Virus record (IMG/VR): IMGVR_UViG_3300046093_000295
Strand: one strand, 5' to 3'
DNA length: 64,000 bases
Origin: a virus
Below, in pieces: positions 6,559 through 63,232 of the stretch. A program made the position numbers and the translations under genes. Below the pieces are notes generated by a model. It searched no databases. It saw nothing but the letters and a program-made list of their open reading frames with translations, and was not told where the DNA came from. Every line of letters starts with the position of its first letter. Position 1 is the stretch's first letter.

Positions 6559-7665
6559 ATGGATGTTTATAAAGTCGGAGGCGCCGTTCGCGATCAACTC
6601 ATGGGGCGCGAGCCGAAGGATGTTGATTGGGTCGTAGTCGGGTCTTCGACTGAAGAAATGATTCGACTCGGCTTTAAGCAAGTTGGGGCATCATTTCCAG
6701 TGTTCCTCCATCCCGAAACAGGGGATGAATGGGCTTTGGCTAGAACTGAGCAAAAGGCTGGTGTTGGTCATACAGGATTTTCTGTAGAGACTGAAAACGT
6801 CACAATCGAATCAGACCTTAAGCGTCGGGATTTTACAACCAACTCGATAGCTTTCAACCCCGTAAACGGGGAATACATTGATCCATATGGCGGCGTGAAA
6901 GACATCAAAGCAAAAATTCTTCGCCATACATCTTTAGCATTTTCTGAAGATCCTTTGCGCGTTGTTCGACTTGCTAGATTTTATGCTCGCTATTCTGAAT
7001 TTTCTGTTGCTGATGAAACCATGGAATTGTCAAAGCAGATTGTTAAATCTGGTGAAATGGATACCATTTCAAAAGAGCGATTTGTAAAAGAGTTTGAGAA
7101 AGTCATCCTTGACGATGGTTCAGACTTTGGCCGATTCGTTGATCTTCTTTACAAACTTGGCGTATTTCAGAACGTGCGTTTTTTCAAAGATGTTTTTGGG
7201 GATATAAGTAGTTCACATCTTCTTGAAATGAAAAAACATTTTGAAGCTGCACGTAAGTGTAACTTGGAAACGAGTGAGATTTTAGTTGCGACTTTTTCTT
7301 CAGTTATGGCGCCAAATGCAGCAAAGGTTTTTGGAAATGATGTTAACGGTGCTTTAAATGCTTTGCAAATTTTTACTTCTGCTGACTATTCAGCAGAAGG
7401 TGTTGTTTATGCTCTAGTAAAGACTCGTTCTACGAATGCTATTAGCACGCACGCAAACTGTGCCCTAAATGTTTTGGCGGCACTTTGGCCGATACAACAA
7501 AATAACTTGCTTTTTTCAGCACATGATTGGAGAAAATTCGCTTCAATCACGTCAAATCTTGATATAATCAACCTCGTAGCAAATTTTGCTGGTAAAGAAC
7601 TTGGACGCCAAATTAGTTTGGCAATGATTACTGCCATTCGACAGGAGATGAATAATGAAAGCTGA
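6559..7665 (+). CDS. cca: tRNA nucleotidyltransferase (CCA-adding enzyme)
   Basis: VGGAVRD..D.D, DL.RRDFT.N, F.EDPLRV.R.ARF. Confidence 0.92.
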   Translation: MDVYKVGGAVRDQLMGREPKDVDWVVVGSSTEEMIRLGFKQVGASFPVFLHPETGDEWALARTEQKAGVGHTGFSVETENVTIESDLKRRDFTTNSIAFNPVNGEYIDPYGGVKDIKAKILRHTSLAFSEDPLRVVRLARFYARYSEFSVADETMELSKQIVKSGEMDTISKERFVKEFEKVILDDGSDFGRFVDLLYKLGVFQNVRFFKDVFGDISSSHLLEMKKHFEAARKCNLETSEILVATFSSVMAPNAAKVFGNDVNGALNALQIFTSADYSAEGVVYALVKTRSTNAISTHANCALNVLAALWPIQQNNLLFSAHDWRKFASITSNLDIINLVANFAGKELGRQISLAMITAIRQEMNNES

Positions 7666-8680
7666 AAAAGAAACGACACTGTTTACGGTACCTAGTGGCT
7701 CTCGTCTTTATGGAACTTTCGGACCAGAATCTGACTATGACTATAAGGCCGTAGTTCTTCCAAAGCTTGATGATCTGCTGCTTAATAAGAAGGTAACTAA
7801 TCGCAAGGAAAAGCCCGAAGGGCGTTCACAGAGCGATAAAGTGCAGGCTGGGGAATCAGAAACCGAATACTTGCCGCTTCAGGTATTTTTTGATGATTTC
7901 TTTAACGGGCAAACTTACGCATTGGAAGTTGCATTTGCCGTTCTTAATGGCGAATCAGAACGTGTTAAGCCTTCAGAAGTTCAAATGATGAGGGAGATGG
8001 TTGATCATTATATGACCAATTCTGTGAAGAAGATGGTCGGTTATGCTATCTCGCAGTCGAAAGCTTACGGCCTTAAAAATGATCGATACACTTCATTGAA
8101 GAAGGTTGTCGATACGATCAAAGATTACTTTGGTTCAGAGACTGAAGTAATGCGTAAAGCCCGGCTTGATTCTCCTGAGTCCTCTGAGCTGATTGACAAA
8201 ATCCTCAAGTTTCCAAACGTCACACGTATAGAAATTCTCAATGCTAAAGGAGGAATTGAAACCGCTCCTGGCATTCAAGTTATTTCTCCAAAGTTTTTGA
8301 TGTCTAATACTTGGTGGCAAGTTTACAGTTCACTGTTGAATACGCTAGATTCATACGGGGAACGCGTTAAAAGCTTTGAGGGCCAGCATGCAGATTGGAA
8401 AGCGTTGAGCCATGCAATTCGCATTGTTGAACAGATTGTTGAGATTTCAAGAACCGGAGCGCTAATATTCCCACGACCTAATTCTGATTATCTGCGCTCT
8501 GTAAAAGAGGGAAAAGAAACAATTGAAGGGGCTTTGGCCTATCTTGATGCCCGTTTCGAAGAAGTAGATGAAGCTGTTGCTAAATCAGTTTTGAAGGAAA
8601 AGACTCAAGAATTGACTGACCAATTTAATATGTTTAAGTTGTCACACCTAAAGCGTCTTTACAATCTCACCGCTTTTTAA
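7655..8680 (+). CDS. Pol-beta superfamily nucleotidyltransferase
   Basis: SGSRLYG...SDYDY motif; WKALSHAIR. Confidence 0.75.
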   Translation: MKAEKETTLFTVPSGSRLYGTFGPESDYDYKAVVLPKLDDLLLNKKVTNRKEKPEGRSQSDKVQAGESETEYLPLQVFFDDFFNGQTYALEVAFAVLNGESERVKPSEVQMMREMVDHYMTNSVKKMVGYAISQSKAYGLKNDRYTSLKKVVDTIKDYFGSETEVMRKARLDSPESSELIDKILKFPNVTRIEILNAKGGIETAPGIQVISPKFLMSNTWWQVYSSLLNTLDSYGERVKSFEGQHADWKALSHAIRIVEQIVEISRTGALIFPRPNSDYLRSVKEGKETIEGALAYLDARFEEVDEAVAKSVLKEKTQELTDQFNMFKLSHLKRLYNLTAF

Positions 8681-18347: not shown

Positions 18348-18944
18348 ATGATTAAACTTAAAAAATTTGCTGCAGATCTTGGTGTAACCAGGATGACGCT
18401 GTGGAATTGGAAGAAGGCTGGAAAAATACAATTTCATAAAATTGGTTCAATGAATTATGTTGATATTGAAACTTACAACAAATTCCTTGGTATAAAGGCC
18501 AAGGAAGAAGAACGCGTAGTGATTTATTGTCGTGTTTCTTCGACTGCAAATAAATCTAATCTTGAGACTCAATCCGAAAGGTTGATTTCATATTGTAACG
18601 CTAGAGGTTACAAAGTTGCTAAAGTCGTTACAGAATTTGGATCTGGACTAAATGATAAGAGGCCAAAACTGGAAAAGCTTCTTAAGGAACAGGATTTTAC
18701 TAAATTAGTAGTTGAACATAAGGATCGGCTGACTAGATTCGGTTTCAATTATATTGAACAGCTATTAAATTCTAATGGCATTGAAATCGATGTAGTGAAT
18801 AATGTAGAGTCAGATAAAGAAGACATTGTTCAGGATTTTGTGTCCGTCATTACATCTTTTTGCGCAAGAATTTATGGACAGCGCCGCAGCAAACGGAATA
18901 CGGAAAAATTGGTTCAAGAATTAGCTAACGATTCAGAAAAATGA
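18348..18944 (+). CDS. tnpA: IS607 serine recombinase/transposase
   Basis: N-terminal HTH, IYCRVSS catalytic motif, GSGLN.KR, VEHKDRLTRFGF. Confidence 0.95.
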   Translation: MIKLKKFAADLGVTRMTLWNWKKAGKIQFHKIGSMNYVDIETYNKFLGIKAKEEERVVIYCRVSSTANKSNLETQSERLISYCNARGYKVAKVVTEFGSGLNDKRPKLEKLLKEQDFTKLVVEHKDRLTRFGFNYIEQLLNSNGIEIDVVNNVESDKEDIVQDFVSVITSFCARIYGQRRSKRNTEKLVQELANDSEK

Positions 18945-20176
18945 CAAATACAGTTCTTAAGGCTTTTAAGTACCGAATATATCCTAATAATAAGCAAGAG
19001 AAATTTCTTCTCCAAAATTTTGGATGTGTTCGCTTCATTTGGAATCAGTTAGTTGCCAATTTTAATTCTTTTTCAAAAGAAGGCCCAAACCGACCAATGA
19101 ATGAGAAGATTTTGAAAGATGATGAGAACTTTCCATGGCTTAAAGATGCTATTAGTTATGCCTTGCAGCAAAAACGAATCGATTTTGATGAAACCAAAAA
19201 GCAATTTTTCTCTAAAAACCGTAAAGCTAAACTGGGAAGACCAAAATTTAAAAAGCGGGGTGGCAATGAATCATTTAGGATTCCTGCGGCTTCAATGCAT
19301 TTAGAAAAATTTGAACAAATTAAAGCAGGTTTTATTAAATTTCCAAAAATGTCTCCAGTAAAAGTAATCATAGATAGACCTTTTACTGGTAAACCAAAAT
19401 CTGTCACAATTTCTAAAAATCCAAGTGGGCAATATTTTGTTTCAATTTTAGTTGAAGAAGAAATAGAATTGAAACAAAATACTGGTCGCTCAATCGGTAT
19501 TGATCTCGGATTGAAAAACTTGCTCATCTTAAGTGATGGTACGCAAATTTCCAATCCAAGATGGTTCAGAGAAAACCAATCTAAACTAAAACGGTCACAG
19601 CAGCATTTAAGCAGAAAAACAAAGGGTTCTAAAAGGTACAATAAACAGAAAATCAAAGTTGCGAAAATCCATAGGGATATTGTAAATCAGCGCAAGTTCA
19701 TTTACCATAACCTGTCGAGTTGGTTAATAGAAAATTACGATGTTATTTGTACTGAAACTCTAAAAGTTAAAAACATGGTTAAGAATCATAGTTTGGCAAA
19801 ATCCATACTTGATGCAAGTTGGTCCACTTTTATTTCAATGCTGGAATACAAAAGTAGGTGGTATGGCCGCACATTTCATAAGATAGATACTTGGTTCCCA
19901 TCGAGTAAGACGTGTTCTTGCTGCGGCCATAAAATGGAAACGATGGATTTATCCATAAGAGAATGGACATGCCCAATATGCGGCTCAAGCCATGATCGCG
20001 ACTTAAATGCGGCTATCAATATTTTAAATGAAGGTGTAAAGGACCTTTATGACATGACCTCGGCTGAATTAACCGAGTACAGACGTGGAGGGGCAGTAAG
20101 ACCTAAGGAAGTTCTTCCAAAGGCAGCTTCTGTGAAGCGTTTAGTGAGTTTTATAGATTTTTATAGAACCGCGTAA
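18941..20176 (+). CDS. tnpB: TnpB RNA-guided endonuclease
   Basis: KYRIYP HTH, RuvC GIDLG / E / DRD.NAA all intact, CxxC...CxxC zinc ribbon. Confidence 0.95.
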   Translation: MTNTVLKAFKYRIYPNNKQEKFLLQNFGCVRFIWNQLVANFNSFSKEGPNRPMNEKILKDDENFPWLKDAISYALQQKRIDFDETKKQFFSKNRKAKLGRPKFKKRGGNESFRIPAASMHLEKFEQIKAGFIKFPKMSPVKVIIDRPFTGKPKSVTISKNPSGQYFVSILVEEEIELKQNTGRSIGIDLGLKNLLILSDGTQISNPRWFRENQSKLKRSQQHLSRKTKGSKRYNKQKIKVAKIHRDIVNQRKFIYHNLSSWLIENYDVICTETLKVKNMVKNHSLAKSILDASWSTFISMLEYKSRWYGRTFHKIDTWFPSSKTCSCCGHKMETMDLSIREWTCPICGSSHDRDLNAAINILNEGVKDLYDMTSAELTEYRRGGAVRPKEVLPKAASVKRLVSFIDFYRTA

Positions 20177-22077: not shown

Positions 22078-22140
22078 TAAAACAAAAATAAATTTGTAAA
22101 GATAGAAAAGTATGGTATAATTGGAGAATGCAAAAAGTGT

Positions 22141-22254: not shown

Positions 22255-22362
22255 TTTATGTTTTGGAAATTTGTATATGATTAGAAAGACCTCTTTGTCC
22301 GGCCATAACTCAGATGGATAGAGTAATTTTGAGTATTTAACCTTTTACCTGATTGTACTTTG

Positions 22363-22439
22363 CTCGCCAGTACCGGAGCGCTCTTCTAAAGCGTAGTACC
22401 GTAACGGAGTCAATGGTGGTTCGAATCCACTCTGGCGAG
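22363..22439 (+). tRNA. D-armless tRNA-Arg(TCT)-like domain nested in the intron region
   Basis: TCGCCAG/CTGGCGA acceptor within a 16-bp stem, GCGCT-CTTCTAA-AGCGT arm, GGTGG-TTCGAAT-CCACT T arm, only TACCGGA where the D arm should be. Confidence 0.6.
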
Positions 22440-22532
22440 CAAAGTACATTTTAATTTATTATTCTAGATAGAATAATTTGAGTTACAATAATTCTACGAC
22501 AATGAATAAGAAGCAAATATGTTAAACAGTTC

Positions 22533-22760
22533 TAATGGGGCACATAAATAGGGATGTTTATTGTGAATGTAGTCAAATTCGGCGAACGCTGCATAAATAC
22601 ATTTAATCCAGAGGACAGTATTTTTATGCCAACGCCGAGCGAAGCCTTGAAAAAGGAACGTGTAGAGACTTGACGGCTACCATCTAGAACAGATGAAGAC
22701 AAAGCTCAGACCACGCGCGGGAAGATAAAAATTCTCAGTAGCGAAAGCTATAGTGGTAAG
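22533..22760 (+). ncRNA. group I intron catalytic core (IC3-like)
   Basis: P2, P3 GTAGTC/GGCTAC, P4 TTCGGCG/CGCCGAG, P5, P6 CG/CG plus CCTT/AAGG, P7 GAGACTT, P8 CATCT/AGATG, P9 TAGC-GAAA-GCTA, P9.0 ACCAC/GTGGT, putative terminal G22760. Confidence 0.88.
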
Positions 22761-22817
22761 CTAAGCAATAAGTCGCTGGTTCGAATCCAGCTGGCCGGAC
22801 AAAGGGGTTTTAAAATT

Positions 22818-23005: not shown

Positions 23006-23068
23006 AAACCGTTTAAAAACTCCCTGGGATTTGTGCCCAGGGAGTTTTTAAATTTGGAGAAAGCAATT

Positions 23069-23590
23069 ATGGATAGTTTTCTTTACGAAATTTTTGATAC
23101 TAAACTTGACCTAGTTTGGCAAAAACATGGGGATTATGAATTAACAGCATTCATTTGGGACGAACAGCAATTTATAATACAGATTGGCCCAGCAGTTACA
23201 GTCGAAAATGCTTTTGAAGTATGTTTCTTTAGAAACGAAGATAGCAACCAAGCATTTTTAAAACCCGCTAAATCTTCTGATGTTGTACCGTCAACTGTCT
23301 ATGGGGTGGTTCTAAATGCTTTAGCTGATAAGATTAGTGACGTTCCATTTTATTTTTCGGCCGAATACTTTCATAGCCAAAATAATAAACAGTTCCAGCA
23401 AACTGTAAAACTTTACGAAATGCTTGCACGAAGAATTGCAAGACAGAAAAATGGATATTTTTACCAACGAAGAAATCGGCCAAATGAATTCTTAGTAAGC
23501 TTAAAACAAATTAATAATGCCGAATGGATTGACCCTAGAAGAGCGTCCCTAACAGAATTCTTAAAAACTGGCCCATTTGTAAAGTTATGA
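23069..23590 (+). CDS. hypothetical protein, paralogue of 21611 gene
   Basis: Start moved to ATG 23069 (GGAG RBS; the upstream part of the ORF overlaps tRNA-Ser). Confidence 0.7.
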   Translation: MDSFLYEIFDTKLDLVWQKHGDYELTAFIWDEQQFIIQIGPAVTVENAFEVCFFRNEDSNQAFLKPAKSSDVVPSTVYGVVLNALADKISDVPFYFSAEYFHSQNNKQFQQTVKLYEMLARRIARQKNGYFYQRRNRPNEFLVSLKQINNAEWIDPRRASLTEFLKTGPFVKL

Positions 23591-62176: not shown

Positions 62177-63232
62177 ATGACAAACCCTATGATTAAATTC
62201 CCAAGCATCGGCCAATTTCGCGATGCTATCAAGCAGATTCAATCTAGCGCCAAGTACCACGGGAAGCCAGTACCGAAACTGAAAATGGTCGGTTTTATCA
62301 AGGCACACGGGTCCAATGGTGGAATTGTCCGCAAAGTCGGCGGAACTGCCGAAGACATTTACTTCCAGTCTCGCGAACGCATTCTGTCGCTGGAATCAGA
62401 TAATGCAGGTTTCTGGTTCTGGGGGAATTCCATTCGTGCTGAACTGAATGACATGTTCAATCGAATCGAAAAGGCATGTCCGGGCAAAACTGGTTATATT
62501 CAAGTATTCGGCGAATGGGCGGGTGGTAGTATCCAATCCGGCGTCGGTTTGACTGGCCTCGACAAATTCTTCATGGTATTCGGTATTCGCGTTTCTGAAG
62601 ATGCTGAGTGCACCGACTGGGAACCAAAAGTAGTCTATGATGAAGTCTTTAAGTTCGAAGTTCATCCTTCTGTCTTTGACAAGTATTTCTTTAAGACATG
62701 GAAAATCGAAATCGACTTTTCCAATCCGGCACTGATGCAAAATGAGTTGGTTCGTATTACTCAAGAAGTTGAAGCTGATTGCCCTGTTGCTCGCTACTTC
62801 AAGCCCGATGCAGAAATTGGTTCCCTTATCGGCGAAGGCGTAGTATGGGTTGTCGAAGAAGGTCAGGACTGTGGCTTTGATGTTTTGTCGGTGATGATGA
62901 AGATAAAGGGAGAAAAACATAGTGTTTCTAAAGTCAAGACTGTTGCTGAAGTAGATGTCGAAAAAGTTAAGAGTATTGCTGACTTCATTGAGTATGCAGC
63001 AACTGAAAATCGACTTGAGCAGATGTTCCAAAAGGCTGTAGAATTGCAACTTGAGATTAGTGCGAAGTCCACTGGTGCATATATCAAGCTTGTGGTAGGT
63101 GATATTTTGAAGGAAGAATTAGATGTGATGGCGGCCTCGCAAATTGAACCCAAGGATATCGGTGGTCCTCTTGCGACAAAGGCGCGAGAGTTCTGGTTTA
63201 AGAAAGTAGAAGAATCTGTCAATCTGGGGTAA
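62177..63232 (+). CDS. RNA ligase (Rnl2-like nucleotidyltransferase)
   Basis: KAHGSN (KxHGxN), FGEW, GEGVVW, KIKGEKH motifs. Confidence 0.8.
   Translation: MTNPMIKFPSIGQFRDAIKQIQSSAKYHGKPVPKLKMVGFIKAHGSNGGIVRKVGGTAEDIYFQSRERILSLESDNAGFWFWGNSIRAELNDMFNRIEKACPGKTGYIQVFGEWAGGSIQSGVGLTGLDKFFMVFGIRVSEDAECTDWEPKVVYDEVFKFEVHPSVFDKYFFKTWKIEIDFSNPALMQNELVRITQEVEADCPVARYFKPDAEIGSLIGEGVVWVVEEGQDCGFDVLSVMMKIKGEKHSVSKVKTVAEVDVEKVKSIADFIEYAATENRLEQMFQKAVELQLEISAKSTGAYIKLVVGDILKEELDVMAASQIEPKDIGGPLATKAREFWFKKVEESVNLG

Follow-up and report, generated by a model that had tools for sequence, protein, structure and literature searches.

Group I introns of subgroup IC3 are known from the anticodon loops of tRNA genes, among them those for tRNA-Ile(CAU) in Azoarcus, tRNA-Leu(UAA) in cyanobacteria and plastids, and tRNA-Arg(CCU) in Agrobacterium. 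To our knowledge, the G:C pair in helix P7 and the bulge next to it are essentially universal in group I introns. For the Tetrahymena ribozyme, a switch of this pair from G264:C311 to A:U was reportedly described by Michel and colleagues in 1989. The cryo-EM structures of that ribozyme place the bound guanosine in a four-layer sandwich of base triples: the G is held by the G:C pair under a roof formed by the bulged A, and an adenine of J6/7 is carried by the A:U layer beneath the G:C pair (PMC10020454). Swapping the 264:311 pair destroys the activity of the Tetrahymena ribozyme; it is the sole P7 pair whose identity matters, and the other pairs tolerate change as long as the helix is kept (PMC2860135). 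The single substitution G264A, with the fold kept, nearly abolishes activity (PMC4094466; see also PMC2860135). The classes of intron insertion sites in tRNA anticodon loops have been catalogued by Williams (Williams 2020, bioRxiv 10.1101/2020.01.27.920355).

We analyzed a 64,000-nt stretch of a freshwater phage (IMG/VR record IMGVR_UViG_3300046093_000295), referred to here as the window, in which a group I intron sits in an arginine tRNA gene (Table 1). ARAGORN, run with introns allowed, reports a tRNA-like gene at 22299-22807 in which about 430 nt separate the two halves, and the intron between them is homologous to the IMG/VR introns L072, L084, L182, L087, L046, and L070. The intron's 5' end was placed by homology and is uncertain, and its 3' end is the omega-G at 22760. 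Four of these relatives (L072, L084, L087, and L182) interrupt tRNA-Arg(UCU) genes between U34 and C35, with an exon 1 that ends in CUU and an exon 2 that begins with CUAAG, and they correspond to Arg.3Ug in the nomenclature of Williams 2020. Exon 2 of the window is intact and homologous to theirs, and the insertion site, the CUAAG start of exon 2, and the context of omega-G (GUGGUAAG) are common to the window and the phage Arg(UCU) introns. With IC3 tRNA introns more widely, the window has in common the P3/J3-4/P4 block, the J6/7-P7 5' strand, the J8/7 consensus, the P2-to-P9 architecture, and the GAAA loop in P9b. Sequence comparison indicates that the locus descends from phage tRNA-Arg(UCU) genes split at U34/C35 by an IC3 group I intron, and the predicted core helices P3 to P9, with their P4/P6 and P3/P8 domains and the consensus junctions, place the intron itself in group I, subgroup IC3.

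Table 1. Predicted features of the intron-bearing tRNA-Arg(UCU)-type locus (positions are those of the window)
Feature	Position	Strand	Remarks
Leader strand	22290-22298	+	Adds 9 bp to the outer acceptor helix; partner 22799-22807; read from the sequence
5' exon, outer tRNA-Arg(UCU)-type gene	22299-22329	+	Acceptor strand, D arm, truncated anticodon-stem strand; ARAGORN partner 22761-22800
Group I intron, IC3 type	22330-22760	+	About 431 nt; Arg(UCU) 34/35 site; RF00028 match and homology
D-armless tRNA-Arg(UCU)-like element	22355-22447	+	On a 16-bp stalk; RF00005, 36.8 bits
Internal guide sequence GGGG	22537-22540	+	GGAG in relatives (alignment)
P2	22541-22565	+	8 bp, perfect
P3 5' strand, J3/4, P4, extended P5, P6	22569-22656	+	Pairing perfect (coordinate pair check)
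P7 5' strand GAGACUU	22665-22671	+	G22667, guanosine-binding G; A22666, canonical bulge; A22668, bulge in the shifted register
P3 3' strand (22672-22680), P8 hairpin (22681-22695)	22672-22695	+	Coordinate pair check
P7 3' strand AAGCUC	22702-22707	+	C22705 and U22706 in place of the family's invariant U and C
P9 three-way domain	22710-22760	+	Stem 22710-22714 with 22753-22757, P9a, P9b with GAAA loop; ends AAG, omega-G 22760
3' exon	22761-22807	+	Anticodon-loop remainder CUAA, stem strand, variable loop, T arm, acceptor strand, 9-nt trailer; no encoded CCA

Against this common background, the window differs from its IC3 relatives at several points. Its P7 3' strand has GCUC where theirs have GUCC, with the bulge shifted and the canonical G pocket apparently removed; the 5' exon is 4 nt shorter, the guide is GGGG instead of GGAG, and the P9 linker is GCGC instead of RAAC; and the P1 loop holds about 190 extra nt that include a tRNA-like gene, and the acceptor helix reaches about 20 bp. 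Several phages have multiple IC3 tRNA introns. At L084:12977-13865, two intron-bearing tRNA genes, one for Arg(UCU) and one of the Leu(UAA) type, lie less than 900 nt apart. A full tmRNA gene (RF00023, 156 bits) is located on a phage contig (L071:247-660) directly upstream of an intron-bearing tRNA, with further cases in L073 and L074, and a c-di-GMP-I-GGC riboswitch match (L046:5949-6028; 62.4 bits, above the gathering score) was observed inside a large tRNA array on the 124-kb phage contig L046.

The change in P7 is a replacement of UC by CU at 22705-22706, that is, at the 3'-strand partners of the guanosine-binding G22667 and of A22668 below it. Rereading the sequence confirmed the two strands as the initial annotation had given them, and the 78-sequence alignment (A2) that covers the P7-P8-P7 region bore out its account of the canonical register as a G.U pair with an A/C mismatch. 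In that alignment, the guanosine-binding pair G8:C66 is kept in 77 of the 78 sequences, as is the A9:U65 pair below it, the window having G.U and A/C in their places. As also proposed before, a register shift recovers a helix with the bulged A two positions over; in the shifted register, the upper pairs are G22665:C22707, A22666:U22706, and G22667:C22705, A22668 bulges out, and CUU pairs with AAG, so that six pairs are restored. The lower three pairs of P7 covary in the canonical register (e.g., in L027), and the shifted register fits the sequence of the window alone among the 78.

Nearest-neighbor energies describe the same exchange. The P7 of a normal relative (GAGACUU/AAGUCC) is at −2.5 kcal/mol, and the P7 of the window is at +5.1 kcal/mol in the canonical register and at −2.5 kcal/mol in the shifted one, with the single-step intermediates UU and CC at −2.1 and 0 kcal/mol, respectively. 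As CU is the only one of the 15 alternative dinucleotides at 22705-22706 with which a full-length 6-bp P7 comes back, the change looks compensatory rather than random, and the model predicts the double change to be exactly compensatory for the secondary structure of P7. An alternative P7 3' strand, the sole AAGUC of the locus (22770-22774), was rejected, as it lies in the tRNA variable loop of the 3' exon, is topologically unusable, and represents a match within chance expectation. These five nucleotides complement the lower part of the P7 5' strand exactly, with the G-binding G included, and relatives have GGUC at this place; the resemblance is probably fortuitous.

To place the variant in its family, relatives were gathered by three pattern scans of IMG/VR, which yielded 122 distinct phage IC3 cores with the J6/7-P7 5' motif. 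The canonical P7 3' strand (the complement of the last three bases of the 5' strand, followed by UCC) is present in 117 of these cores, and in 4 more an open reading frame (ORF) of the homing-endonuclease type within P8 puts the P7 3' strand beyond the searched range; the window alone has CUC. The contrast is sharpest with L046, whose P8 and J8/7 are letter-identical to those of the window and whose P7 has the canonical UCC. The initial annotation had proposed a search for the same P7 in homologues, and none turned up among the 117 introns with the strand in range or in two variant-specific scans. The scan of all viral contigs gave no match, and the scan of one genome per prokaryotic species gave a single match (L091), which is not a second true case, since it lies in coding-looking sequence that has no other core motifs and is attributed to chance. 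Motifs of the TAGCTC type 3' of 10 canonical introns were likewise discarded as P7 strands, most of them being tRNA D-arm sequence and two being other chance matches. Our search for a published description or sequence matching the re-registered P7 returned none. The link that had been drawn earlier between uniqueness among homologues and simple decay is only half sustained: the arrangement is unique among the relatives with which it was compared, and these are distant ones.

A variant present in one sequence only might also be an error of assembly or of consensus calling, the true phage having UC at 22705-22706. We hold this to be very improbable. A swap of two adjacent bases is atypical of both short-read and long-read errors, the locus has other private changes of this kind (a gap of 4 nt in the exon, GCGC in the P9 linker, and GGGG in the guide in place of GGAG), and the phage is well sampled, with the exact protein of the neighboring ORF (23069-23587) encoded on 9 contigs. 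The protein collection has near-identical variants of that protein and homologues that are 78 to 80% identical to it; two metagenome scans (one with the single protein and one with a 4-protein alignment), a viral-contig scan, and a tblastn search of GenBank phages found no close relative of the phage. A scan with the 5' half of the neighboring tRNA-Ile2 gene recovered only uninterrupted genes from unrelated phages.

By analogy with known structures, the two substitutions fall in the middle layers of the sandwich that would hold guanosine, both the exogenous G and omega-G. The arrangement expected of a guanosine site, a G:C pair in P7 directly 3' of the bulge with an A:U pair below it, is found in neither the canonical nor the stable register of the window. 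With the register shift, the bulged A crosses from 5' of the G:C pair to 3' of it; the A that normally roofs the pocket would be buried in a Watson-Crick pair, and the bulge would lie on the wrong side of the G:C pair. The canonical guanosine pocket would then be gone, and ordinary two-step self-splicing would be lost with it. Both the Tetrahymena and the Azoarcus structures lead us to infer that G binding and splicing have probably been lost in this intron. The change falls in the same P7 layer as the G264A and 264:311 swap mutations of Tetrahymena; those mutants are laboratory changes of a single pair in the canonical register, whereas the window has a natural double substitution that extends over two layers and re-registers the helix. 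A report of Azoarcus C177U (PMC8890501), considered as a sign of tolerance for G.U, was set aside, as its numbering may be offset from that of the crystal structure.

As G22667 is still paired with a C, some guanosine binding may persist, and the intron might still splice or cleave, either through G22667:C22705 beside the relocated bulge or, in the canonical register, through G.U and a protonated A.C wobble; its affinity or cofactor preference might then have changed. A G:C pair flanked by a bulged A does persist, and P7 tolerates changes at its other pairs as long as the helix is preserved (PMC2860135). Nevertheless, we regard continued activity as unlikely. Compared with the sandwich of the Tetrahymena ribozyme, the bulge is now 3' of the G, the roofing base is paired, and the order of the layers is inverted (PMC10020454); the canonical register is 7.6 kcal/mol worse than the shifted one; the arrangement occurs in no natural homologue among the approximately 120 sampled; and no feature indicates a different cofactor.

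The rest of the ribozyme is intact. The Rfam model RF00028 aligns with the core at 22513-22709 with 40.8 bits (E = 1.3e-8; gathering score, 50). We rejected this subthreshold score as a sign of decay, as intact relatives in IMG/VR score 35 to 88 bits with the same model and low scores are usual in this compact phage family. Helices P2, P3, P4, P5, P6, P8, P9, P9a, and P9b are perfectly paired, with lineage-specific compensatory changes, and J8/7 stands between P8 and the P7 3' strand. In a conservation audit of 89 relatives over four anchored segments, 67 columns were at least 93% conserved, and the window keeps 64 of them; of the three columns at which it deviates, two hold the P7 bases (100% conserved in the relatives), and the third lies in the unreliably aligned P1 area. 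Further, the 531-nt locus folds far better than its shuffled versions (z = −6.75). Judged by conservation and predicted pairing, the ribozyme bears no sign of general decay, and the intact core (64 of 67 columns, all helices, and the z-score), like the compensated P7 change, counts against a loss of self-splicing. The retention of all other catalytic-core invariants, of omega-G, of P9.0/P9, and of the guide sequence also speaks for an intron that is still active.

The 3' splice site conforms to the family as well. The initial annotation had viewed the AAG that follows P9.0, in place of an immediate G, as anomalous, and this view does not hold: where the P9 closing motif was matched, AAG is the commonest ending (34 introns), ahead of ACG (14), AUG (8), and AGG (1), and the nearest tRNA-Arg(UCU) relatives have the identical ending. 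G22760 is followed by CUAAG exactly as in L072, L084, L087, and L182. Within the P9 domain, the linker after the P9 5' strand (22715-22718) is GCGC in the window, where about 75 relatives that share its P9 architecture have RAAC; this second private change lies close to the machinery of the 3' splice site.

A MAFFT alignment with the four intron-bearing tRNA-Arg(UCU) genes reveals a 4-nt gap in the 5' exon of the window (22326-22330), directly before the homologous 5' splice site, so that the last bases of the anticodon-stem strand and some of the anticodon loop are missing. To read exon 1 as bearing a 12-nt insertion or tandem duplication, in place of a 4-nt deletion, would be less parsimonious than the MAFFT alignment. 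The rejoined exons would have intact acceptor, D, and T arms and would lack the full cloverleaf of the relatives, with its 5-bp anticodon stem and CUUCUAA loop; with 4 nt missing at the anticodon stem and loop, the outer gene would therefore give no normal tRNA even if the intron were spliced, which makes selection for splicing hard to see and weighs further against continued activity. The homologous 5' splice site (22329|22330) can form only U.G wobbles with the GGGG guide. Other candidates for the 5' splice site, CCUU with its last base at 22344 and CUU with its last base at 22360, allow a P1 of 3 to 4 bp, and a normal cloverleaf results from none of the candidate sites.

The change of UC to CU in the layers of the sandwich, the swap data from Tetrahymena, and the damaged 5' exon together favor inactivation. 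The initial annotation had offered two outcomes, an inactivated intron or a ribozyme with altered cofactor specificity or function; the first is favored by the same three lines of evidence, and the altered cofactor gains no support. We conclude that the intron is probably incapable of normal self-splicing.

The P1 loop provides a possible reason why the outer tRNA could be dispensed with. The D-armless element nested there matches unannotated elements in Limnohabitans phage DC31 and in PAK_P2-like phages with 87 to 95% identity over 59 to 63 nt, and it recurs in stand-alone form at L082:1497-1575, at L083:~797-875, and in L209 to L212 (Pakpunavirus phages and four IMG/VR contigs). The stand-alone copies end in ACCA (GCCA in PAK_P2), and promoter-like hexamers were recognized by eye upstream of three of the four IMG/VR loci (L209 to L212). 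A scan for D-armless tRNAs returned stand-alone genes only and no second nested copy. The copy in the window is thus the only one that is nested in an intron, and it stands on a 16-bp stalk and has no CCA. The nested tRNA-Arg(UCU) could supply this isoacceptor, and the outer tRNA looks both broken and replaced.

Both Arg elements share further features that go beyond what simple gene death would explain. In the minimum-free-energy fold, a helix of about 20 bp closes the locus, and leader and trailer add 9 bp to each element (22290-22298 with 22799-22807 in the outer and 22355-22363 with 22439-22447 in the nested element), with CUUUG/CAAAG common to both extensions. The acceptor helix is not extended in this way in any of the window's seven other tRNA-like genes that were checked. 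Neither the outer nor the nested element encodes CCA, and the 9-bp extensions and the missing CCA are not explained by the simple death of a gene. The extensions may constitute a special processing signal. PHROG matches assign genes for a CCA-adding enzyme and an RNA ligase to the phage: a tRNA nucleotidyltransferase lies at 6559-7665, a second nucleotidyltransferase at 7655-8680, and the RNA ligase at 62177-63232, and a transposase-family protein (18941-20176) adjoins the first tRNA cluster. A sigma-70-like promoter (22094-22121; TTGTAA, 16 nt, TG, TATAAT) was noted upstream of the tRNA cluster, and a strong terminator hairpin with a U-tract, recognized by eye at about 23015-23049 after tRNA-Ser(UGA) and absent from the list of the terminator scan, was noted at its other end, so that the promoter-like site and the hairpin bracket the cluster.

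These observations raise the question of whether a fold that has been disarmed might have been kept. The locus could then be a composite structured RNA of about 520 nt that serves as a scaffold for processing of the nested tRNA, as a decoy, or in another job that does not involve splicing, and selection would account for the new register of P7, the loss of the 5' splice site, the closing helix of 20 bp, and the tRNA-like domain nested in the locus. The P7 change is compensated and neutral in energy, no further lesion is present in the 64 conserved columns or in any helix, and the private changes are concentrated at the G site and in the P9 linker; the 9-bp extension is specific to the locus, mirrored in the nested element, and missing from the seven other tRNA-like genes; both elements are without CCA in a phage with a CCA-adding enzyme and an RNA ligase; and the fold z-score of −6.75 points in the same direction. 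On the other hand, such a reading rests on a single sequence, and invariants that serve a catalysis no longer needed should drift, yet none has done so, and a very recent change fits the data equally well. We consider this combination of selected features doubtful.

A group I-derived RNA with a different job is the lariat-capping ribozyme GIR1, which, like the window, keeps the group I fold with altered guanosine and splice-site machinery (PMC2219692). GIR1, however, has a distinct, conserved, and rearranged core and demonstrated branching activity, whereas the window differs in only two core bases and still has its tRNA exons attached. We put forward, tentatively, that the re-registered P7 may have been selected, with a pocket rebuilt by moving the bulge across the G:C pair, and that it may be kept, with the fold and the catalytic invariants intact, in a composite RNA together with the tRNA-like gene, either as a decoy or scaffold that does not splice or as a ribozyme that handles the nucleophile differently. 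Retention is supported by the compensatory nature of the change, by a core that is untouched, by private changes that cluster at the guanosine site and P9, and by the special closing helices, and a relic is supported by uniqueness among approximately 120 relatives and by the broken exon.

A natural intron in which the two central layers of the guanosine pocket are swapped and the rest is kept offers a ready-made test of the pocket geometry that catalysis needs. If relatives of this phage prove to have a normal P7, the locus would be an early snapshot of the death of an intron and its tRNA gene after replacement by the nested gene, an ordinary outcome that nevertheless explains the locus. If relatives instead conserve the swap, it would represent a natural group I fold retooled after the loss of ordinary splicing, and the setting would be a phage tRNA array remodeled around anticodons in a genome that encodes a CCA-adding enzyme and an RNA ligase.
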